This document shows positions 1 to 12,208 of a stretch of 64,000 bases of DNA, one piece after another. The translations under genes were made by a program, and so were the position numbers. Below the pieces are notes generated by a model. That model was not told the origin of the DNA, did not search any database, and was given only the letters and a program-made list of their open reading frames with translations. Source of the stretch: Minisyncoccota bacterium (lineage in GTDB: Bacteria > Patescibacteriota > Minisyncoccia > Phycocordibacterales > UBA918); assembly GCA_040879435.1 (NCBI GenBank), contig JBBDKG010000010.1:2019-66018 (forward strand). Direction: 5' to 3'. Numbering within the stretch: the stretch's first letter is position 1; each line of letters opens with the position of its first letter.

Positions 1-3000
1 ACCAAAACGGTTCTGTAGCAGGCGCGCTTAAGGCTGGTGACACCGAGAACAACAAAGGACAGTACTCTGCATTTAACAAAGAAAACCTTCGGAACACGAA
101 CGAAAGCTATGCCCAAAACCCTGGTGCATACAATGAGATGGCTCGAAAGTTTCTTGATGGCGAAATAGCAAAGGAACGAGGGACCGCTGTTGCAGTTCCG
201 CTTCCGCGCGCAACACACTACTATAATCCAGGAGAAGCCACCCCGAACTGGGGACCAAAACTGCAGGAGGTGCGGGAATTTGGTCCTGCTGGCCAAAGTC
301 ACCGTGGAGGTACACTTGCCGGTGAATACGAGACCCGTGGACAGCCGGAAGGACTTGAGAAGCTTGCCCTTGACCGATTCAATAGCGTTATGGGAGCTGA
401 GAGTCGTGGAATGGATCCAGTGCGAGCGGATGAGGAGGGTCAGATGGAGGTTGCGAAACGACTTGCCTTTGGAAACAATGGTGAATTTGCAGGGACTCCG
501 GGTGGTTCAGGTTCTCCGGAACCTTCGCAGCCAGTTACCCAAGTAGACGCAGAGGAGTTTTCAGAAACATTCGATGGTCGTGAATCCCAGCCACAAGAGC
601 TCGGCGGCATACCAACTGACCGCTCACTACCTGAAACACCACCAAACGCCTTCACTTTCCCAGACAATGTTTTTGACTTCGATGAGATACCCGGGTACAT
701 CGGCACTGAAGGCCCACGTGCCCCTGCGGGCTCGTTCCGCCTCGGAGCTACCGGACTCGCAGAAGCAGAGCAGCGAGCAAACCTTACTGAGTCATTCAAA
801 CACGGCGGAAGAATCCGTGACGAAGACCCCGACACCACTGTGAACGGCCTTACTCTCGGACAAGTGGCACAGATAGAGGTAGCGAACTACAATGAGAAGC
901 ACGGTACCCGCCACAACGTCGACGTATACTCTGGAAAAGGACCACATGGATCCGCCCGACATCGTGACCATGATGATACAGCGCGCGGCACCCCTGGGTG
1001 TGGCTGTGCGATCGACTTTTCGATCACTGACGAGAACGGGCGTGCACTGCCTGTTTCTGGCAACGAGGACGTCTATGCGGAAGTCGCACGTGGGCTAGTC
1101 GAGAAGACTGGTGGATCGATCGGACTTGGAGCTGAGTATATGGATCACGGCATTCATTTTGATATGGCAAATATTGCCCATCCGAATAAGGGCGCGTTCG
1201 CCGGGAAAGAATGGGGGAGCCTCGGTAAAGCCTTGGCTAAGGAGTTTGCTGAATTACGTGCAGGCGCGCCAAAAGCGACTGTGGAGTATGACGAAGAGAC
1301 TGGGCGCACCACTATCACACTTCCAACTGAGGACGTGCCGTTCGATCAAGAATCAACACCAGGTATCGCGAGCGGGATCTTTGGTATCGACCCGAATGAA
1401 TCGCGGTTCGTCGATCCGAATGAACTAGACGAATACGTCGAAGAGCAACAGCGTACTGCCGAACCTGCGGAAGGCGAACCGGAAAGCGATACTGAACCAG
1501 GCGACAGCATCAGAGAACGAGCCACAGAACAGGTGCGTGACTTTATCCGGTTTATCTCCGACCTGCTCGGCGGTCGTGGTGATAGATCCCCTTCTCCAAC
1601 CGATGGCGAGAACGCAACCACCACTGATCCGGTAAGTTACGATACTGGTGACCATTGGTTGAGTGCACTGACCCTTACCCCGACCGCACATGCACAAGTC
1701 AGCACACCACCGGAAGAGTCACAGTCGCTTAAAGAGAGCATTGCGGCGTTGTGGCACTGGATCTTTGGATCAGAAGAAGCACCGCGTCGCACCTTCTCCG
1801 ATCTGCCGGGAGCACACCTCCACGCATACTCCCGTCCGTATGTTCCTGTACTGGTACAGATCGATGAAGTGGCCGGTGCAGTGAAGTTCTCCCGCGGTGA
1901 AATAAAGAACGCAACAGATGTTCGTGAACTGCCGGAAGCCCTTGAGATCGCCTTTGAGTCCGGAGACGATTCCTTCTCATTGATACTGAACGAATTCGGG
2001 GATGTTGTGTACTCGAACGGCATGTTCGCGCCAGAGACCGACACTGAAGGAAATCCACTACCAACGGACATGGACTATGTGTACTTTGTAGAATACTGGC
2101 GGGACGGTGAGTTGGTACGTTCGGAGACAAACACCAAAACACTTCCAGGCAACTTCTTCACGCGCATGATCGGTGATCTCTTTAGCAAGGATGACCCATT
2201 CACACTGACTGACGTCGACTCGGTCACCTTCGTGCATGGAGATCCTGACCCAGACGCTCTTACCGATGACTATCGTGAGTATACGATTCGGCTCATGGAC
2301 GGATCTGTTCGCCACGTTTCACTACCGGTCAACTCTTCCCTCTCCTTCTACCTGAAAGAGCTGGACGATATTGGGTACAACGGGGACATTGTGGCTCTAC
2401 TCAATATCGCGACCGAAACTGAAAGAAAAGAAGGGGTTGATGCAAAAGGTTTCCTTGCACGCTCTCTCAGTAAGCTGAACGGCGACTCCGTACAGTCTGA
2501 TGCTCTTCCAGATCAACAGCAAGAGATCTTTAGTGATCTCACCGAAGCACTTAGCAACAACCAAGGTGGATTCATTCCGTCGGGTGTCACAGAGGTGGTG
2601 GTGTACTTCAATGTACCGGTACTATGTGAAGATGAAACAACCACAGGATATGTGTACGAGGTAACACTGTCCGGTTACCAACCAAATGGAGCACTGACCG
2701 AGATTCCGGCAGCTGCTGCACGTTGTGGCAACGGTGGCCCACGTACATACGCCACCGAGATCGCAGCGCACATCACCTCAGCGACAGGACTTGCAGTATC
2801 GGACGAGCAGATATTGGAGTTAATTGAATTCCAATACAACACACCGGAATATGTCTACCTCAACGATGAAGGAGATGCCAGCGCATCGGCACCGGTGATT
2901 CCGAACACCACGAACGAGGTTGTATTTGAGGCGAAGGCCAGCCGGAACGGCGCCACTGTTGTGAACTGGAGCACTGGTGCGATAACGCTAGCAGTGGGCG

Positions 3001-3286: not shown

Positions 3287-5986
3287 CTAGGCTTTCACGG
3301 TTTGGCGGCGCGGCGTGCTTGATGTCTTGGCAGCTTTGGTTCGTGACCGCTTCTTCTTCACGTCGAAGGTCAGCTGGTCATCCTTAAGGCCGACCACGAC
3401 CGTTCCTCCCTGAAGCATCCCCTCTCCTACCATCATATTCGCAACCGGTGTGAGGATCTTCGACTGGATCACCCGCTTCAATGGCCGGGCACCAAACTTC
3501 GGATCGTACCCTTCCTTGGCAAGAAAATCGAGTGCTTCAGGAGCAACAGTAAGAGCGATCTCTTTGTTTGCAAGCCGCTTGGTCACCTCAGCAACCTGCA
3601 TTGAAACGATCTGACGGATAGTCTCACGCGAAAGGATGTCAAAGACGATGACCTCATCGAGCCGGTTGAGGAATTCTGGACGGAAGTACGTCTTGAGACT
3701 CTCCATCACCTTACCCTTTGCCTGGTCATACTGTGCCTGATCATCGCGTACCGCACTGAACCCGAAATTCGACATACGATCGATATGTTCGGCGCCGATA
3801 TTCGAGGTCATCACAATGATCGTGTTCTTGAAGTTCACTTTGCGACCCTTCGCATCGGTCAGATGGCCAGAGTCAAGTACCTGGAGGAGGATGTTGAATA
3901 CCTCCGGATGTGCCTTCTCGATCTCGTCGAGGAGGATCACCGCATACGGACGGTGACGCACGCGTTCGGTGATCGAACCTCCCTCTTCGTGTCCAACATA
4001 GCCTGGCGGCGAACCGATGATCTTTGAGACCGAATGCTTCTCCATGTATTCGGACATATCGATCCGCAACAGCGCATCGGGGTCATCGAACATGAATTCG
4101 GCCAATGCGCGCGAAAGCTCTGTCTTGCCGACACCGGTCGGACCAAGAAAAAGGAACGAGCCAATTGGTCGGTTCGGGTCAGCAATACCTGCGCGTGAAC
4201 GCTTCACCGCGTCTGCCACCAGTTTCACTGCATGATTCTGCCCCACAACCTTCGTTTGCAACTCCTCTTCCATGCGCGAGAGTTTCATTGCCTCAGCCTC
4301 GAGCATACGGGAGACCGGAATGCCGGTCCACCGGGACACCACCGCAGCGATCTCCTCCTCGGTGATCTCCTCTTTCAAGAGCCGACGACTTCGTTGAAGT
4401 TTCTTCAGGCGTGTCATCTTCGTATCAAGTTCACGCTGCGTTGCAGGAATAGCATCGTAGCGGATCTCCGCGGCGCGTGTGAGGTCAGCAATAGCCTCTG
4501 CCGACTCTGCCTCAAGACGCAGCTTCTCAAGCTCCTTCTTCAAGCGGCCGATCTCGGTCAGCGCTTCTTTCTCATTGTTCCACTTGGTTTCAAGTGCCGA
4601 GGTCTTCTCTTTCAGTTCGCCGACCTCTGCATCGATCTCCTTGAGGCGTGTCTTTAGTTTTCGTTTGTCCTTTGCTGTTTCCTCCTCCTTCTTCAATGCC
4701 TCCTTCTCGATCTCGAGACGACGCACCTGTCGGTCGGCAGCAACCAACTCTTCCGGCTTGTTCTCAAGAGAGATGCGGAGCGCTGATGCAGCTTCATCGA
4801 TCAGATCGACCGCTTTGTCCGGCAGGAACCGCTCAGTGATGTATCGACTCGAAAGATTTACCGCCGCAACGATAGCGTCATCAGTGATGCGCACGCCATG
4901 AAAGAGCTCATACTTCTCAGCGATGCCGCGCAGGATGGCAATTGCATCCTCCTGTGATGGTTCATTCACAAAGACCGGTTGGAAGCGGCGGGTGAGGGCA
5001 GGATCACGTTCGATATGTTTTTGGTATTCCTTGAGCGTTGTGGCGCCAATGACGCGCATCTCGCCGCGCGCGAGAGCTGGTTTTAGCATATTCGATGCGT
5101 CCATGGAGCCTTCTGCTGCGCCAGCCCCCACAATAGTGTGCAGCTCATCGATGAAGAGGATCACTCCCCCTTCTGACTGCTCCACTTCTTTCATGACTGC
5201 CTTCAGGCGCTCTTCGAATTCACCACGGAATTTTGTACCCGCGACCAAGAGTCCCAGGTCGAGTGAAAGGATTTCCTTCTCTTTTATTGATTCCGGTACC
5301 TGCCCCTGTGCAATCTGCTGAGCGAGTCCTTCGGCGATCGCGGTCTTTCCCACTCCCGCCTCACCGATCAGTACCGGGTTGTTCTTTGTGCGTCGTGAGA
5401 GGATCTGAATGACTCGCTGCACCTCCATGTCCCGGCCGATGACCGGATCGAGCTTCTTGTCCTGTGCAAGCTTAGTGAGATTGCGGGTGTATTTGGTGAG
5501 TGCACGATATTTCTTCGGCTGCTGTGCATCAGACACGCTGTGTTCGCGTATCTCATGGATCGCGTTCGCGACCTGTGCCTTATCTATCTGCATGCGCTGC
5601 AGCACTTCGACTCCAGGACCAGGGTGTTCGAGCGCCGCCAAGAAGAGGTGCTCCACACCAACGTATGAATCGCCGAGCTGTTCTGCGACACGAGCCGAGT
5701 GCTCGAGTGCCTTTGCGAGTTCTGGTGTGAGGTAGAGTTGATACGACTGGGAGATGGTAGAGGTTACCTCCGGTCCTTCAAGTGCTTCGATCAAAAGGTC
5801 AGTGAACGCGATGATGTCGATATCGAGTCTATCGAGCATTGAGATCACTGTGCTCTCATCCTGCATTACAAGCGCGCACAGCAAATGCACCGGGCTGACG
5901 TGATTCTGCCCGCGTTCAATGGCAAGCTCATGAGCCTTTCGGATGGCCTCCTTCGCTCGAGATGTGAAATTGTGAAAATCCGGCAT
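3287..5986 (-). CDS. clpB: ATP-dependent chaperone/disaggregase ClpB
   Basis: 899 aa. N-terminal Clp_N repeats, two AAA+ modules (GEAGVGKT and GPTGVGKT Walker A motifs), and a long coiled-coil middle domain between NBD1 and NBD2 typical of ClpB rather than ClpA/C. Lys-rich C-terminal tail. Confidence 0.95.
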
Positions 5987-6783: not shown

Positions 6784-7995
6784 CTATTTTATGCCTCTAT
6801 ATATGAGCATTTTGTGAATATGTGCAGCAAGTATTTCTCGCACACGATCCATATCCTTCCTCGTTGTCTCTTCCCCGAGGGTGAGGCGTAACGTTGCTGA
6901 GGCACGCGCACTATCCTTCGTCATTTCAAATACAACAGTGGACATACCCCCACCTGCCCCACTACATGCGCTTTTGGTCGATGCTGCAATGCCGTTCGCG
7001 TCAAGTACCACGGTTGCATACTCCGTATCAAGTCCGGGAATCGAGATGTTGATGTTGTTTGGAAGGCGTTGCTCTACTGATCCGTTCAGCACTACTCCCT
7101 CGATGCCCGTGAGTACTTCAATGCCATAATCGCGTACTGTACGTACCTGTTGGCTTCGTGCTTCACTCCCGTTCTGCGCAATCGCCAGTGCGGCGGCCGC
7201 ACCAACGACACCCGGCACATTTTCGGTACCTGGGCGTAGTCCCTGCTCTTGTGATCCGCCGAATGTGACAGGTGCGAGCGTTGTGTGGCCGCGGTGTACC
7301 AATACACCCACACCCTTCGGTCCACAGAATTTGCCGGCGTCGAGCGTCATCATATCCACTCGCAGACGTTCAAGTCCGCACGGGAGCCACAATGGTACCT
7401 GACTCGCATCAGTGTGAACGAGAACCTCTGTTCCGTGCTCACGTGCATATTCCTGAATGATACGCGTAAGTTTCGCAAGGTCCTGCACCACACCGGTCTC
7501 GCTGTTCGCGTATGCAAATGTGGCGAGGCGGGTTGTTGGTGTGAGGTGTGCCTTCAGTGTCTGTGGATTGATGCGTCCGTCCTCTTCGAGCGGAACGTAC
7601 GTAACAGTGCACCCGCGTGATTCAAGTTCAGCAAGCGTTTGCAGCACAGACGGGTGTTCCGCTTTATTTGAAATGATCCCGATATCACTGTACTTCATCC
7701 CCCCGCGGTGACATGAGCGAACGAACCCATGAAGCGCAAGGTTATTGCTCTCAGTCCCTCCACTTGTGAAGGTTGTATCACTCGGCCGAACACCGAGCGT
7801 TCGTGCAACAGAAGTGCGAGCCCCCTCAACAGCCGTTCGCGCGCGAACGCCTTCCTTATGGATCGAACTGGGGTTTGCGAACGATTCATTGAAGTACGGT
7901 CGCATCGCCCTGTACACCTCAGGCCGCACCGGCGTCGCCGCAGCGTGGTCAAGATAGATTCGTTTCGGTTTTAGAAGCCAATGCAGTATATTCAT
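6784..7995 (-). CDS. cysteine desulfurase, class V aminotransferase (IscS/NifS-like)
   Basis: 403 aa. DHAAATP start region, SGHKF-type PLP-lysine region (DAGKFCGPKGVGVL), and class-V aminotransferase architecture typical of NifS/IscS. Confidence 0.85.
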   Translation of the reverse strand: MNILHWLLKPKRIYLDHAAATPVRPEVYRAMRPYFNESFANPSSIHKEGVRARTAVEGARTSVARTLGVRPSDTTFTSGGTESNNLALHGFVRSCHRGGMKYSDIGIISNKAEHPSVLQTLAELESRGCTVTYVPLEEDGRINPQTLKAHLTPTTRLATFAYANSETGVVQDLAKLTRIIQEYAREHGTEVLVHTDASQVPLWLPCGLERLRVDMMTLDAGKFCGPKGVGVLVHRGHTTLAPVTFGGSQEQGLRPGTENVPGVVGAAAALAIAQNGSEARSQQVRTVRDYGIEVLTGIEGVVLNGSVEQRLPNNINISIPGLDTEYATVVLDANGIAASTKSACSGAGGGMSTVVFEMTKDSARASATLRLTLGEETTRKDMDRVREILAAHIHKMLIYRGIK

Positions 7996-8090: not shown

Positions 8091-9596
8091 ATGGGTATGG
8101 CAAAGAAAGCAGCAACACAACAAAATATCGTAAAGCGGCCACCGATCATTGTGGTCATGGGACATATCGACCATGGGAAGTCGACCCTGCTCGACCACAT
8201 TCGCAAAACGAACGTGGTTGAGGGTGAGGCTGGTGGCATCACTCAGCACCTATCGGCATACGTGGTCGAACATACGACCAAGGACGGTGCGCACGAGAAA
8301 CTCACCTTCCTTGATACACCAGGACATGAGGCATTCCAGAAGATGCGCCTGCGCGGCGCCGGCGTTGCCGATGTTGCCATTCTTGTTGTGTCTGCTGAGG
8401 ACGGCGTGAAGCCACAGACACTCGAGGCGCTTGAGAGCATCAAGCAGGCCGGCATTCCATACGTGGTCGCTATCAACAAGATCGATAAACCGGGTGCGGA
8501 CATCCCGCGCACACAGGCAAGCCTCGTCGAGAACGAGATCTATATCGAAGGCATGGGCGGAGACATCTCATGGGCCGCCATTTCCGCAAAATCAGGAGAA
8601 GGGATCAGCGACCTTTTGGACGTTGTGGTGCTGACCGCAGACCTTGCTGAATTAAAGGGAGATACAGCTGCTCCTGCAGAAGGCACTGTCATCGAGTCAC
8701 GTGTTGACGCAAAGCGCGGTAACACTGCGACCCTCCTCATCAAGGATGGTACCCTCAAAAGCGGCAGCGTCGTTGTCTCCGGTACCACGTACGCCCCGGT
8801 ACGTATCATGGAGGACTTCACCGGCAAGCCGATACGTGAGGCTGGTCCTTCAACGCCGGTCGCGATCGTTGGTTTCTCGGATGTACCAAGCGTCGGAGCA
8901 CTTTTCTATACAGTTGCAAACAAGAAAGCTGCGGAACAGGCAGTCACCGAGGCCGCGACAGGTGAACAAAAGGAATCCTTTCAAAAGACCGACCTACCGG
9001 TCGTACCGGTCCTTATCAAGGCCGACGTACAGGGTACGATCGATGCGATACGTCACGAGCTTGCAAAGTTCACCTCGGACAGAATTGCTGTGCGCATCAT
9101 CGACACAGGCGTCGGTGCGGTAGGTGTCGCTGACGTACAAAGCGTAAGTGCGACCGAGAACGCCATCATCGTCGGTTTCAATGTGAAGGTTGAACGACCG
9201 GCACAGGACCTTGCAGAGCGGCTTGAGGTCGAAGTGAAGACATTCAATATTATCTACGAACTTGCAGAGTGGCTTGAAACAGCGCTCAAGGACCGCACGC
9301 CACAGCGCGAAGAGGAAGTGGTGACCGGGAAAGTGAAGGTACTGAAGGAGTTCAGTGTGCAGAAGCATGTGCACGTACTCGGCGGACGACTTGATGAGGG
9401 TACCATCGGTGTCGGGCAGCGTGTGCGTATCCTTCGTCGGGATGTGAAGATCGGGACCGGTGTGATAAAGAACCTGCAGCAGCAGAAATCAGACGTGCAG
9501 AAGATCACTGAGGGTGAGTTCGGTATGCAGGTCGAGACACGTGCCGAGGTCTCTGCAGGTGACTACTTAGAAGCCTACGACCTCGTTGTTACGTAA
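8091..9596 (+). CDS. infB: translation initiation factor IF-2 (short form)
   Basis: [10 protein letters not shown]-loop, DTPGHEAF and NKIDK G-domain motifs, followed by beta-barrel domains. 501 aa with no long N-terminal extension. Confidence 0.9.
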
Positions 9597-9921
9597 AGGT
9601 ATGGACCGACACGACCGCGTCACATCACTTATCCACGAACTGGCGGCGACATTCATCCGGAATGAAGCCAATCACGATCCGCTGATCACCATCACCCGTG
9701 TCACGACCGCGTCTGACTACAAGCGTGTGACAATATTTTTCACAACCATCCCTGACTCGAAAGAAGAGGACGCACTTATCTTTCTTAAACGATACGGTTC
9801 AGAATTGCGTCGGTACATAAAGCAGAAGAGCAACCTAAAGATCATTCCCCATCTTGATTTCGCGATCGACTACGGTGAGCGCCACCGACAGCATATTGAT
9901 GAGATCGCACGCGACCTCTAG
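9586..9921 (+). CDS. rbfA: ribosome-binding factor A
   Basis: About 110 aa, immediately downstream of infB (the conserved infB-rbfA order). KH-like RbfA pattern (R...LIHELAATFIR...ITITRVTTASDYKRVTIFF). The start may be the internal ATG at 9601. Confidence 0.7.
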   Translation: MLRKGMDRHDRVTSLIHELAATFIRNEANHDPLITITRVTTASDYKRVTIFFTTIPDSKEEDALIFLKRYGSELRRYIKQKSNLKIIPHLDFAIDYGERHRQHIDEIARDL

Positions 9922-9928
9922 TAATCGG

Positions 9929-10001
9929 AGTCCTGGGCGGGAGTCGAACCCGCGAATGTCGGTTTTGCAAACCGAAGCGTTAACCACTTCGCCACCAGGA
10001 C
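9929..10001 (-). tRNA. tRNA-Cys (GCA)
   Basis: Reverse complement folds as a cloverleaf: acceptor GTCCTGG/CCAGGAC, anticodon stem-loop TCGGT-TTGCAAA-ACCGA with anticodon GCA, T-loop GGTTCGACTCC. Confidence 0.85.
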
Positions 10002-10072
10002 AATTGCATCAAATACTCTACCACTCATACACAGCAACACCAAACAGCCGTTTCGTGATATTATCAGCCGAA

Positions 10073-10159
10073 TGCCGAGGTGGTGGAGTTGGTAGACACG
10101 AGGGACTTAAACTCCCTTGCCACTTATACTGGCGCGCGGGTTCGAATCCCGCCCTCGGC
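10073..10159 (+). tRNA. tRNA-Leu (TAA), class II with long variable arm
   Basis: Acceptor GCCGAGG/CCTCGGC. Anticodon arm AGGGA-CTTAAAC-TCCCT with anticodon TAA. Long variable arm GCCACTTATACTGGC. T-loop GGTTCGAATCC. Confidence 0.85.
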
Positions 10160-10213
10160 ACAAGCAGTCTTGTTTTCACATCCGCAATACGGTACACTCG
10201 TGTTTGCACATTT

Positions 10214-10286
10214 CCGCCCATAGCTCAGCTGGTAGAGCAGACGCCTCTTAAGCGTAAGGTCCTTGGTTCGAGCCCAAGTGGGCGGA
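10214..10286 (+). tRNA. tRNA-Lys (CTT)
   Basis: Acceptor CCGCCCA/TGGGCGG. D-arm GCTC-AGCTGGTAGA-GAGC. Anticodon loop CTCTTAA with anticodon CTT. T-arm CTTGG-TTCGAGC-CCAAG. Confidence 0.8.
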
Positions 10287-10377
10287 CATTAATTCAAACT
10301 GCACATTGATCGATATGGTATCAGTGTCCACACTCCAAATGATTGGTAATCGCTATGTGTCTTAGAATGAAGACAAT

Positions 10378-11025
10378 ATGGCGAACAGGAAGAAGTACGT
10401 GGACACTAACTGGAGCGGTCCACTTGCCTACGTAATTGGACTTATTGCTGCTGACGGAAACCTGTCTCCTGACGGCAGACACATCTCCTTTACTTCCAAA
10501 GATAGTGCCCTAGCAAAAACCTTCAAAAGAATTTTGTGTTTGGATAACACGATCGGGATAAAGGCACGAGGAGGCAGTACACATAAAAAGTATCATGTTG
10601 TGCAGTTCGGCTCGGTAGATTTTTACACCTTTCTCCTTTCTATAGGACTTACACCAGCAAAATCAAAGACGATCGGCGAGCTTTTGATTCCTTCGCAGTA
10701 CTTTCCGGACTTTTTGCGTGGGTGTATTGACGGAGATGGAAGCATAAGTACTTTCTCACATCCTGAGAGCAAGTACTCTCAGCTTCGAGTGCGACTTGCT
10801 TCAGCAAGTCCAAAATTCCTCAAGTGGGTACACGTAGAAATCTCCCGTTGTATGAGGACGAATGGTGGATGGGTATACACGGACAGCAAGAAGTCAGTTG
10901 CAACTCTTACCTATGCTACAGCTGATTCTGTTAAAATACTCACAGCGATTTACCGATCTTCTACATGTGACTGTTTGCATAGAAAGAAGAAAACTGCTAC
11001 AAAGTATCTCGCTGCTTTGAAATGA
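10378..11025 (+). CDS. LAGLIDADG-family homing endonuclease (double-motif, single-chain type), free-standing between tRNA genes
   Basis: 215 aa with two LAGLIDADG motifs (GLIAADGNL near the N-terminus and GCIDGDGSIS mid-protein). GC content is about 45%, clearly below the flanking DNA. The stop at 11023-11025 is 3 nt before tRNA-Leu. Confidence 0.85.
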   Translation: MANRKKYVDTNWSGPLAYVIGLIAADGNLSPDGRHISFTSKDSALAKTFKRILCLDNTIGIKARGGSTHKKYHVVQFGSVDFYTFLLSIGLTPAKSKTIGELLIPSQYFPDFLRGCIDGDGSISTFSHPESKYSQLRVRLASASPKFLKWVHVEISRCMRTNGGWVYTDSKKSVATLTYATADSVKILTAIYRSSTCDCLHRKKKTATKYLAALK

Positions 11026-11028
11026 AAT

Positions 11029-11111
11029 GCCGGGGTGGCGAAATTGGTCAGACGCGCTAGTCTTAGGAACTAGTGGGGCAACCCGTGGAGGTTCGAGTCC
11101 TCTCCCCGGCA
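11029..11111 (+). tRNA. tRNA-Leu (TAG), class II
   Basis: Acceptor GCCGGGG/CCCCGGC. Anticodon arm CTAGT-CTTAGGA-ACTAG with anticodon TAG. Long variable arm. T-loop GGTTCGAGTCC. Confidence 0.85.
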
Positions 11112-11116
11112 CATAC

Positions 11117-11153
11117 AACAAAACACACCGGAATATTTCCGGTGTGTTTTGTT
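11117..11153. terminator. bidirectional intrinsic terminator (tRNA cluster / trhO)
   Basis: Near-perfect inverted repeat ACAAAACACACCGGAA-atat-TTCCGGTGTGTTTTGT lying between the + strand tRNA-Leu and the convergent minus-strand gene. Confidence 0.75.
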
Positions 11154-11161
11154 ATACGGTT

Positions 11162-12208
11162 CTATACACGAAGTCTCGTCTTCTTGAATTGAGTGGGGCG
11201 GAAATATGCATTGTATAGACGTGCATACAATCGCTTCGGTGTTGCCGGCAACTGGTCAAGCAGTCTGCATAGTGTTGAACAGTATCCCTGCTTCCCCGCT
11301 ACACAACCATCACATCCAAGATACAACACATGACACACCTGATTCTTGCAGTGATAGTGAGTGTCACTCTTTTCAGTATTGCACAAATGACAGGTCGATA
11401 TGACCTCCTCTCCAATACGCTCTCCTAATCGTTCATCGAACACGAAGTTCTTGCCGCGGAACCGGTTCGGTAATCCTTTTGCCTTCACCTGGTGGGCATA
11501 GTCGATGATGCCACCTTTCAGATGCCGGACGTTTGTGAAGCCATTGTGCTTAAGCCACGCACTCGCCTTCTCGCAACGAATGCCGCCTGTGCAATACAGC
11601 GCAATCTTCTTGTTCTTATGTACCCGGAGTAGCGCTGGGACAACTGCAAGTTCCTCACGAAAGGTCTCGACCTCTGGCGTGATCGCATTCTCAAAGTGAC
11701 CGATCTCGCTCTCGTATGCATTTCGCATATCGACCACGACAGCATCCGGGTCGTCAATATATTCGTTCATCTCCTCCGCAGACAAGTACTCGCCGGTGTT
11801 GGTAACATCGAATGAGGTGTCGTTCAGACCGTCAGCTACGATCTTCTCCCTCGTCTTGATTGATAGTTTATAGAACGAAGGTACATCACCTTCCTCGACC
11901 GCTATCTTGAACGGAACGTCAGAAAAGAGTTCATGCGATCTCATGTATGCCTCAAACTCCCCAAAGTGCGCGGTCGGTACGCTCATCTGGGCATTGATGC
12001 CTTCATGCGCCAGATAGATACGTCCCAAACAACCTAGTGCGCTCCACACACTGAACAATTCATTACAAAGCGCCTCTGGATCATCGATCCGGACATATTT
12101 ATAGAACGAGAGCGTCGTACGAGGAACTGAAGCCGTTGCAACGGCTCTTTTTCGCTCCTTTCGTGGGCGCAGGTCAGAATGCATACGGCCAGTATAGCCT
12201 TGTTTCAA
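11162..12208 (-). CDS. trhO: rhodanese-domain protein of the UPF0176/TrhO (YceA) family, tRNA U34 hydroxylase-like
   Basis: 348 aa. Rhodanese active-site loop YCTGGIRCEKA, preceded by the UPF0176 N-terminal domain. Cys-rich C-terminal tail (CHLCNTE...CKNQVCH...CDGC). Confidence 0.75.
   Translation of the reverse strand: MKQGYTGRMHSDLRPRKERKRAVATASVPRTTLSFYKYVRIDDPEALCNELFSVWSALGCLGRIYLAHEGINAQMSVPTAHFGEFEAYMRSHELFSDVPFKIAVEEGDVPSFYKLSIKTREKIVADGLNDTSFDVTNTGEYLSAEEMNEYIDDPDAVVVDMRNAYESEIGHFENAITPEVETFREELAVVPALLRVHKNKKIALYCTGGIRCEKASAWLKHNGFTNVRHLKGGIIDYAHQVKAKGLPNRFRGKNFVFDERLGERIGEEVISTCHLCNTEKSDTHYHCKNQVCHVLYLGCDGCVAGKQGYCSTLCRLLDQLPATPKRLYARLYNAYFRPTQFKKTRLRV

Follow-up and report, generated by a model that had tools for sequence, protein, structure and literature searches.

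Why does a gene for a LAGLIDADG homing endonuclease stand by itself between two intact tRNA genes of a bacterium? We addressed this question in a 64,000-nucleotide (nt) stretch of the genome of a Minisyncoccota bacterium (contig JBBDKG010000010.1, positions 2,019 to 66,018; referred to here as the window), in which an open reading frame (ORF) of 215 amino acids lies between tRNA-Lys(CTT) and tRNA-Leu(TAG). Computational comparison with relatives leads us to propose, with moderate confidence, that the ORF is part of a homing endonuclease cassette that is free-standing, persistent, and still mobile and that has its anchor in the tRNA-Leu(UAG) locus. The proposed unit would consist of the 5′ half of a tRNA-Leu(TAG) gene (cut after the anticodon and now a promoter), the two-domain ORF, and a complete, working tRNA-Leu(TAG) gene. 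In the window, the ORF and its immediate surroundings are laid out as follows.

10214-10287, + strand: tRNA-Lys(CTT), left neighbor of the ORF (ARAGORN and Rfam, 63.6 bits)
10342-10365, + strand: remnant of the 5′ half of a tRNA-Leu(TAG) gene, ATTGGTAATCGCTATGTGTCTTAG (local alignment to positions 15-38 of the window's own tRNA-Leu)
10343-10377, + strand: slot of the family promoter (−35 hexamer TTGGTA at 10343-10348, 17-nt spacer, −10 slot AATGAA at 10366-10371, 6 nt, ATG)
10378-11025, + strand: LAGLIDADG endonuclease ORF, ATG start, 215 amino acids, two domains
10438-10464, + strand: first LAGLIDADG motif, GLIAADGNL, residues 21-29 (D26 invariant)
10720-10749, + strand: second LAGLIDADG motif, GCIDGDGSIS, residues 115-124 (D118 and D120 invariant)
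11029-11112, + strand: intact tRNA-Leu(TAG), the conserved partner of the ORF (ARAGORN and Rfam, 56.4 bits)

The ORF product matched the Pfam family LAGLIDADG_3 in two stretches (E = 3e-12). A database entry identical to it, from a metagenome-assembled genome of Candidatus Paceibacterota, bears the name "LAGLIDADG family homing endonuclease"; the NCBIfam search of the product returned no family, and its PHROGs match was to a generic "endonuclease" family only. In an alignment of 33 homologues, D26, D118, and D120 were invariant, as were about 40 further positions. The best solved relative by sequence was I-Tsp061I (2dch; E = 0.0013), with both motifs aligned. An AlphaFold2 model (predicted local distance difference test score [pLDDT], 92.8; predicted template modeling score [pTM], 0.90) contained two alpha-beta-beta-alpha-beta-beta-alpha units, the order expected of a doubled LAGLIDADG fold, and its top Foldseek match in the PDB was again I-Tsp061I (E = 4.6e-10; template modeling score, 0.62-0.65). 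The top 50 PDB matches were exclusively LAGLIDADG proteins, I-Tsp061I being followed by inteins, I-AniI, the bI3 maturase, WhiA, and I-DmoI. The 215 amino acids comprise the two core domains only, with no added domain. We conclude that the ORF encodes a small LAGLIDADG enzyme, a monomer of two domains whose active site is intact, and we infer that it has DNA endonuclease activity.

Rfam covariance models gave no match to an intron family, whether group I, group II, or another, in positions 9500-12000 at E ≤ 10, in the window at gathering scores, or in 16 related loci. The three scans returned only tRNAs, one 23S rRNA, and one LOOT RNA. The ORF is therefore not embedded in a ribozyme that matches any intron covariance model, and the downstream tRNA-Leu(TAG) is a complete cloverleaf that does not depend on splicing. 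The tRNA-Leu(TAG) piece in front of the ORF is a nonfunctional 5′ half.

These results agree in large part with the original prediction, which had been made from the letters of the window. It had described a monomeric enzyme with two motifs, on which the motifs themselves, Pfam, and the AlphaFold2 fold agree, and the acidic residues of both motifs (D26 and D118/D120) are those found invariant in the 33 homologues. It had placed the end of the ORF 3 nt before tRNA-Leu(TAG), and the TGA stop codon indeed ends at 11025. It had called both flanking tRNAs intact; ARAGORN and Rfam concur for each, and the tRNA boundaries stand, with no intron model matching at the flanks. Its estimate of a GC content some 10 points below the surroundings needs small revision: the dip is real, the difference is 9 points (0.443 for the ORF versus 0.535 for the whole window), and the trait is family-wide. 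Its description of a free-standing copy inside a tRNA array holds insofar as there is no intron RNA. The arrangement is not a local oddity, however, because the family keeps its place beside tRNA-Leu(TAG) no matter which gene comes before it, as described below.

A protein search with a cutoff of E ≤ 1e-3 yielded 2479 clusters; the best 120 were mostly 206-240 amino acids long and 50-70% identical to the ORF product. With one genome counted per species, at least 484 species genomes encode a relative, and from these the best 80 loci were fetched (labeled L001 to L080). Their hosts are Kaiser-, Nomura-, Yanofsky-, Staskawicz-, Wolfe-, Lipton-, Magasanik-, and Uhrbacteria, among others. According to ARAGORN, tRNA-Leu(TAG) directly adjoins the ORF in 79 of the 80 fetched loci. 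The sole exception is L080, in which the ORF abuts tRNA-Leu(GAG) instead. When the window is added to the fetched loci, tRNA-Leu(TAG) lies downstream on the same strand in 72 of 81 loci, downstream and convergent in 5 (L020, L021, L029, L035, and L060), and upstream of the ORF in 2; in one locus the contig ends inside the ORF, and in one (L080) tRNA-Leu(TAG) is absent. The upstream neighbor varies among tRNA-Lys (of either orientation), tRNA-Leu(CAG), tRNA-Leu(TAA), tRNA-Cys, and protein genes. L001 has the same arrangement as the window, with an ORF that is 70% identical and an IF-2 that is 72% identical. The window itself contains a single copy of the ORF. We conclude that the ORF belongs to a large and apparently undescribed family of Paceibacteria, within the candidate phyla radiation (CPR). 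A tRNA-Leu-linked LAGLIDADG family was not found in full-text searches of the literature, the coverage of which is incomplete, so that "undescribed" is provisional.

The connection to the tRNA extends to overlap. In 58 of the 72 same-strand loci, the stop codon of the ORF lies within the tRNA gene. The modal stop is at tRNA positions 8-10 (22 loci), where U8-A9-G10 supplies UAG in 19; other stops inside the tRNA use the TAG of the D-loop or, in 5 loci, the anticodon TAG itself. Several homologues have C termini that resemble translated tRNA sequence. ORF and tRNA do not overlap in 14 same-strand loci, among them the window. The convergent clade keeps a conserved ORF with no possibility of co-transcription, an indication that DNA (as target or homology), and not expression alone, ties the ORF to the tRNA. 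As a separate observation, tRNA-Lys(CTT) is inverted relative to the ORF in L003, L005, L006, L009, L010, L011, L013, L022, L064, and L071. These loci belong to several separate IF-2 clades, which suggests repeated small inversions beside the cassette.

Alignment of the 60 nt upstream of the ORFs revealed a conserved block before the start codons, ATTGGCAGACGCTATATGTTTTAG-TATAAT-N6-ATG. When each hexamer was required to match at 5 or more of 6 positions, a promoter-like TTGG(C/T)A-16..18-TATAAT was present in 50 of 79 loci, with a spacer of 17 nt in 42, compared to 0-4 in control windows. The first in-frame start codon is 6 nt past the −10 hexamer in 30 loci and 7 nt past it in 8, a spacing that would imply a leaderless mRNA in most relatives. 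The same block matches the D-loop and D-stem of tRNA-Leu(TAG) (AATTGGYAGACGC), a strand of its anticodon stem, and YTTAG; the likeness ends right after the anticodon, where TATAAT starts. The acceptor stem and GTGGCGGAA are still kept upstream in L016, L023, L026, L027, L046, and L051. With a tRNA-Leu profile (nhmmer), 29 of 79 loci gave a match in the 100 nt that precede the ORF, and 26 of these share one register; control windows gave 0-9 matches, the strong ones being real tRNAs. Of the occurrences of an 11-mer from the D-arm, 43 are upstream of ORFs and 33 are within tRNA-Leu genes; the other 1.17 Mb contain 19. In the window, the remnant covers the D-loop, the 3′ strand of the D-stem, and the anticodon stem and ends in CTTAG, right after the anticodon. 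The −10 slot of the window is degenerate, with AATGAA in place of TATAAT, and a promoter scan of this region called no promoter-like site.

The remnant was not copied from the working tRNA beside it. In 20 loci, a remnant with the common G9-type D-arm stands next to a working tRNA of the A9:C12 type (defined below), and no remnant is A9:C12-like. A working tRNA-Leu(TAG) with the anticodon-stem sequence of the remnant was found in none of the 120 loci examined. L002 contains, at 4810-4858, the 3′ half of a different tRNA-Leu allele, from the anticodon on, about 100 nt downstream of the working tRNA (E = 8e-9). Shorter copies of a tRNA-Leu 3′ end are found about 100 nt past the working tRNA-Leu in L036 (4830-4862) and L014 (4854-4877), with a shared hairpin between. 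The extra 3′ copies in L002, L014, and L036 could be leftovers of the disrupted gene or repeats of another small insertion. The promoter spacer, for its part, may stay tRNA-like because the enzyme uses it as an operator or because it serves as a homology arm.

Three loci show further peculiarities of these tRNA-like sequences. In L080, a divergent member of the family, the remnant (3960-3990) reads CTTGAGGT and the working tRNA (4659-4740) has a GAG anticodon; the changed anticodon loop is common to both. In L023, a tRNA-Leu(CAG)-like gene at 3796-3918 has an insert of about 35 nt in its D-loop; the profile matches it in two pieces (E = 4e-11), and neither ARAGORN nor Rfam calls it. In the window, the anticodon-like stretch of the remnant pairs with the start-codon region in a predicted RNA fold at 10349-10385 on the + strand (minimum free energy, −27.6 kcal/mol; z = −2.2, a weak signal), a structure that, if formed, might limit translation of read-through transcripts.

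We looked for sites without the cassette by scanning metagenomes for tRNA-Lys(CTT) followed within 30 nt by tRNA-Leu(TAG), which gave at least 120 loci. Most of these are from ordinary bacteria, in Pro-Arg-His-Arg-Lys-Leu-Gly arrays, and direct adjacency of the two genes is therefore the widespread state. The neighborhood of the window, IF-2/RbfA/tRNA-Cys/Leu(TAA)/Lys(CTT)/Leu(TAG), is conserved, and the cluster recurs in many related loci. At least 18 of the Lys-Leu loci carry a Paceibacteria-type Cys/Leu(TAA)/Lys/Leu(TAG) cluster without the ORF; in these empty sites (L175 and 17 further loci, among the matches listed), the gap between tRNA-Lys and tRNA-Leu(TAG) is 1-22 nt. L175 has IF-2, RbfA, tRNA-Cys on the − strand, Leu(TAA), Lys(CTT), and, after some 7-9 nt, Leu(TAG), which is the order of the window minus 10288-11028. 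The empty loci are scattered on an IF-2 tree, where they occupy at least 7 distinct positions between filled ones. Comparison of the tRNA cluster in syntenic genomes thus gave both filled and empty alleles, i.e., a presence/absence polymorphism at one defined site among relatives.

We compared the history of the ORF with that of IF-2. Across 24 genomes, pairwise identities of the two proteins were correlated (Mantel r = 0.76; 0 of 2000 permutations as high), with mean pairwise identities of 57% for the ORF and 50% for IF-2. Shallow and middle clades coincide in the neighbor-joining trees of the two, and 1032 of 1093 triplets (94%) with ≥95% bootstrap support in both were concordant. The ratio of nonsynonymous to synonymous substitution rates (dN/dS; Nei-Gojobori) was 0.05-0.2 for the ORF and similar for IF-2, with dS near saturation; such values indicate strong purifying selection on the ORF. 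Age estimates from dS were dropped because of this saturation; identity at 4-fold sites, corrected for composition, and the triplet bootstrap were used in their place. The excess identity at 4-fold sites was greater in the ORF than in IF-2 for 62 of 82 informative pairs, a result in favor of mobility. Clearly degenerate-looking copies are few, about 3 of 80: L038 (4001-4333) and L057 (4001-4450) have premature in-frame stops, and L002 (~4001) has neither start codon nor promoter. The GC content of the ORF follows that of the host (r = 0.89; slope, 0.74) at a level 9 points lower, or 12 points lower at third codon positions (GC3), so the GC dip is a property of the whole family.

The 61 conflicting triplets center on L071, L014/L030, L057, L005, L027, and L040/L055/L078. 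The last of these groups is a mosaic. The flanks of L078 are nearest to L040 on both sides (~0.79, versus 0.69 to L055), whereas the remnant, ORF, and tRNA-Leu together are nearest to L055 (0.85, versus 0.78 to L040). L055 and L078 have near-identical tRNA-Leu genes. The breakpoints of the mosaic fall at the ends of the cassette, and in the L055/L078 event tRNA-Leu moved with the ORF. We conclude that the cassette has been resident for a long time and has descended mostly vertically, with occasional lateral replacement of the remnant, ORF, and tRNA-Leu as a unit.

The working tRNA-Leu(TAG) at filled loci is often of an unusual form. An allele with A9:G10-C11-C12 (A9:C12) was present in 28 of 80 filled loci; among the matches listed, it was present in 0 of 18 Paceibacteria-type empty loci (Fisher P = 0.0013 versus filled) and in 3 of 97 other bacteria (P = 1e-8 versus filled), counts that come from loci that are not phylogenetically independent. 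The three cases in other bacteria are on high-GC, non-CPR contigs. The form is scattered over the ORF tree, and it creates the UAG at positions 8-10 that ends the ORF in 19 loci. A10 variants, which place UGA at positions 8-10, are likewise enriched at filled loci. The enrichment of A9:C12 may reflect selection for the stop codon, or it may mark alleles that the enzyme does not cut.

From the anatomy of these loci we propose the following course of events. An endonuclease gene would have entered a tRNA-Leu(TAG) gene in the anticodon loop, and a full tRNA-Leu copy directly downstream would have taken over the work of the tRNA. Entry at this position is suggested because the remnant ends at the anticodon, the 3′ half in L002 begins there, and the allele types of remnant and working tRNA differ. 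In most relatives, a TTGGCA-17-TATAAT promoter derived from the remnant would drive a leaderless mRNA. Since the ORF runs into the tRNA, the mRNA and the pre-tRNA-Leu would share one transcript, and RNase P cleavage would trim the 3′ end of the mRNA. In the window, the −10 hexamer has decayed, and transcription would probably read through from tRNA-Leu(TAA) and tRNA-Lys. The original prediction had suggested use of the tRNA promoter context; most relatives appear to have a promoter of their own, and it is in the window, with its degenerate promoter, that read-through from the upstream tRNAs is plausible. An active monomeric enzyme would cut tRNA-Leu(UAG) loci that have no cassette, and after DNA uptake, repair from a cassette-bearing copy would convert the whole unit, tRNA included. 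A more novel possibility is a natural cut-and-replace drive on an essential tRNA gene, in which the enzyme would cut ordinary G9-type tRNA-Leu(UAG) at the anticodon region and the cassette would supply an uncut tRNA allele, expressed from its own promoter and overlapping the ORF; the resident gene would be destroyed and the host left dependent on the new copy. Such a drive would explain the remnant, the A9:C12 enrichment, the long persistence, and the unbroken linkage; we offer it tentatively and think it rather unlikely to be correct in this form.

Several points weigh against a persistent, mobile cassette. No column of tRNA-Leu(TAG) fully separates the 80 filled from the 18 empty loci, and the Lys-Leu spacers of the empty sites vary in length and sequence, a poor fit with a single target across the junction; no cleavage site could be derived. 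Both flanking tRNAs are intact in filled alleles, and the proposal offers no explanation of how filled genomes avoid cutting themselves. The promoter, leaderless start, co-transcription, and RNase P processing are all derived from sequence. The 94% concordance with IF-2 and a conservation at least equal to that of IF-2 exceed what is expected of the classic cycle of invasion, decay, and loss and would also fit a host function. In addition, IF-2 is linked within 2 kb, so that concordance could in part be co-transfer, and the dS values are close to saturation.

The main rival explanation is domestication. A former homing element could now serve the host through a function that requires it to bind or cut DNA site-specifically, in or close to the tRNA-Leu locus. 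Such a function might be control of the tRNA operon with the conserved remnant as operator, stimulation of recombination, or exclusion of foreign DNA with a sensitive tRNA-Leu allele. A domesticated enzyme had also been among the suggestions of the original prediction, and it is compatible with a dN/dS of ~0.1 and with the 94% triplet agreement with IF-2. Conservation that equals or beats that of IF-2 (57% versus 50%), the scarcity of clearly degenerate copies (~3 of 80), a tRNA-derived promoter spacer kept beyond the needs of a promoter, and tRNA adjacency that persists through rearrangements point the same way. However, the gene is absent from 18 or more syntenic genomes, which occupy at least 7 places on the IF-2 tree; its GC content is 9 points and its GC3 12 points below the host; lateral mosaics exist; and both catalytic Asp residues are retained, unlike in WhiA and most maturases, with no domain added. 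Loss of catalytic residues, an added domain, and uniform presence in a lineage, the usual signs of domestication, are not features of the family. We regard domestication as possible, though on balance unlikely. The ORF could instead be a passenger without a target, kept open by its position between a promoter and the only tRNA-Leu(UAG) gene, which it overlaps, so that deletions or nonsense mutations would harm tRNA expression through promoter loss or polarity. In favor of a passenger, 58 of the 72 same-strand ORFs terminate within the tRNA, and in most loci the promoter precedes the ORF. Polarity, however, preserves a reading frame and not amino acids, and we observed a dN/dS of ~0.1 and invariant catalytic residues; moreover, the convergent clade (L020, L021, L029, L035, and L060), with no possible co-transcription, is equally conserved. 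We consider this explanation improbable.

Two further alternatives concern how the arrangement arose. Group I introns of bacterial tRNA genes interrupt the anticodon loop, and the upstream tRNA-Leu half stops right after the anticodon, at the classic position of such an intron. The ORF might therefore be the leftover of an ORF-bearing self-splicing intron in the tRNA-Leu anticodon loop, a claim about origin only and one that the original prediction had raised. That part of it, the position, stands. No intron family was found at E ≤ 10 in 9500-12000, nor any in the 16 related loci; there is no space for a ribozyme, with the ATG 6-7 nt past the −10 hexamer and the ORF entering the next tRNA; and the downstream tRNA is complete, so that splicing is unneeded. 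We give a degraded intron little credence. That the insertion is recent and local, or an assembly artifact specific to the genome of the window, has in its favor a GC content below that of the surroundings. L001 and dozens of other genomes have the same arrangement, and the low GC is found throughout the family; these two facts refute such an origin, the probability of which we take to be close to nil. A selfish insertion, as originally suggested, is thus upheld in kind by the empty sites and lateral mosaics, and its age is what changes: it is ancient and mostly vertically inherited, not recent. A phage origin of the tRNA-linked family was also considered and rejected, since relatives on viral contigs are only 24-36% identical. 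A long-resident homing cassette remains our preferred reading.

The wider surroundings of the cassette in the window include the following features.

8091-9596, + strand: IF-2 gene, 501 amino acids (GTP_EFTU, EF-G_D2, and IF-2 domains)
9927-10001, − strand: tRNA-Cys(GCA) (ARAGORN)
10074-10161, + strand: tRNA-Leu(TAA) (ARAGORN; Rfam, 61.4 bits)
11116-11154, strand not assigned: perfect hairpin AAAACACACCGGAA / TTCCGGTGTGTTTT, separating tRNA-Leu from the rhodanese-family gene that converges on it (read off the sequence)
11165-12208, − strand: rhodanese-family gene, convergent with tRNA-Leu(TAG) (UPF0176_N, Rhodanese, and Rhodanese_C domains)

The tRNAs of the window scored 56-66 bits with Rfam. 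IF-2 is without a long N-terminal region, and the 3′ end of its gene overlaps the start of rbfA. The hairpin at 11116-11154 is probably a two-way transcription stop; a terminator scan of the region did not call it because its T-run sits within the stem. We take the rhodanese gene to be a tRNA U34 hydroxylase of the TrhO/YceA type. Substrates of TrhO/YceA in E. coli include the tRNA-Leu with a UAG anticodon. Among the fetched loci, this neighbor is shared with L001 only. Elsewhere, L005 has a LOOT RNA (RF03000, 90 bits) at 7710-7829 on the − strand, about 3 kb from the cassette, and L049 has a 23S rRNA gene (1-2837, − strand) ending about 1.1 kb upstream of the ORF.

Phages and organelles provide the well-studied examples of free-standing homing endonuclease genes, and the CPR reports that we found concern only LAGLIDADG genes of rRNA introns. 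Here, a family of ~2,500 clusters is tied to one tRNA gene, with a stop codon in the tRNA, a promoter apparently recycled from a tRNA half, and a tRNA that travels along. If the enzyme is active, the family would be a case of a selfish nuclease whose residence in small genomes that are competent and recombine has been very long, of an element reshaping an essential tRNA sequence, and of an mRNA and a tRNA sharing one bacterial transcript. It would also be a source of compact (~210 amino acids) natural monomeric meganucleases of diverged specificities. Annotators of Paceibacteria should take a gene of this family as evidence of neither an intron nor recent transfer.

Parts of the arrangement recall known systems. 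Bacterial group I introns in tRNA anticodon loops include that of cyanobacterial tRNA-Leu(UAA) and a tRNA-fMet intron with I-Ssp6803I. As in these, the break point of the remnant is at the anticodon of a tRNA-Leu gene; unlike in these, there is no ribozyme, no interruption of the tRNA gene downstream, a different isoacceptor (UAG), and an endonuclease from another family than I-Ssp6803I. Integrative elements that target tRNA genes likewise have a partial tRNA on one side and a complete working tRNA on the other, here with differing allele types in 20 loci. They differ in that our family has no integrase, its duplicated part is the 5′ half and not the usual 3′ end, and its insert is a single endonuclease gene. 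Enzymes of the I-Tsp061I/I-DmoI type share the fold and size of the ORF product (~200 amino acids, two pseudosymmetric domains), with an acidic residue in both motifs; those enzymes are encoded in archaeal rRNA introns, whereas the ORF product is ~16% identical and free-standing beside a tRNA gene.

The Seg and Mob genes of T-even phages are free-standing homing endonuclease genes that encode GIY-YIG or HNH enzymes, and SegB lies in the tRNA gene cluster of T4. Phage free-standing genes, the subject of PMC2988022 and PMC13096335, have their own promoter, undergo co-conversion with flanking markers, and are present or absent among relatives. Our family resembles Seg and Mob in its intergenic position beside a conserved gene and its presence or absence among relatives, and a promoter-like motif is predicted in 50 of 79 loci. 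It differs from them in its LAGLIDADG class, its cellular genome, its overlap with a tRNA gene, and the tRNA-half remnant alongside. Within the CPR, LAGLIDADG genes have been described in rRNA insertion sequences and introns, e.g., I-ShaI, and spread by homing between CPR lineages has been proposed (PMC11270868). These are mostly single-domain LAGLIDADG_1 homodimers in group I introns of 16S and 23S genes; LAGLIDADG_3 is rare in that survey and confined to 16S insertions (PMC11270868). The CPR LAGLIDADG papers deal with rRNA insertions and make no mention of tRNA genes (PMC11270868, PMC11809585). The ORF family is like the CPR rRNA genes in host radiation and enzyme superfamily; unlike them, it is two-domain, intronless, and tied to tRNA-Leu.

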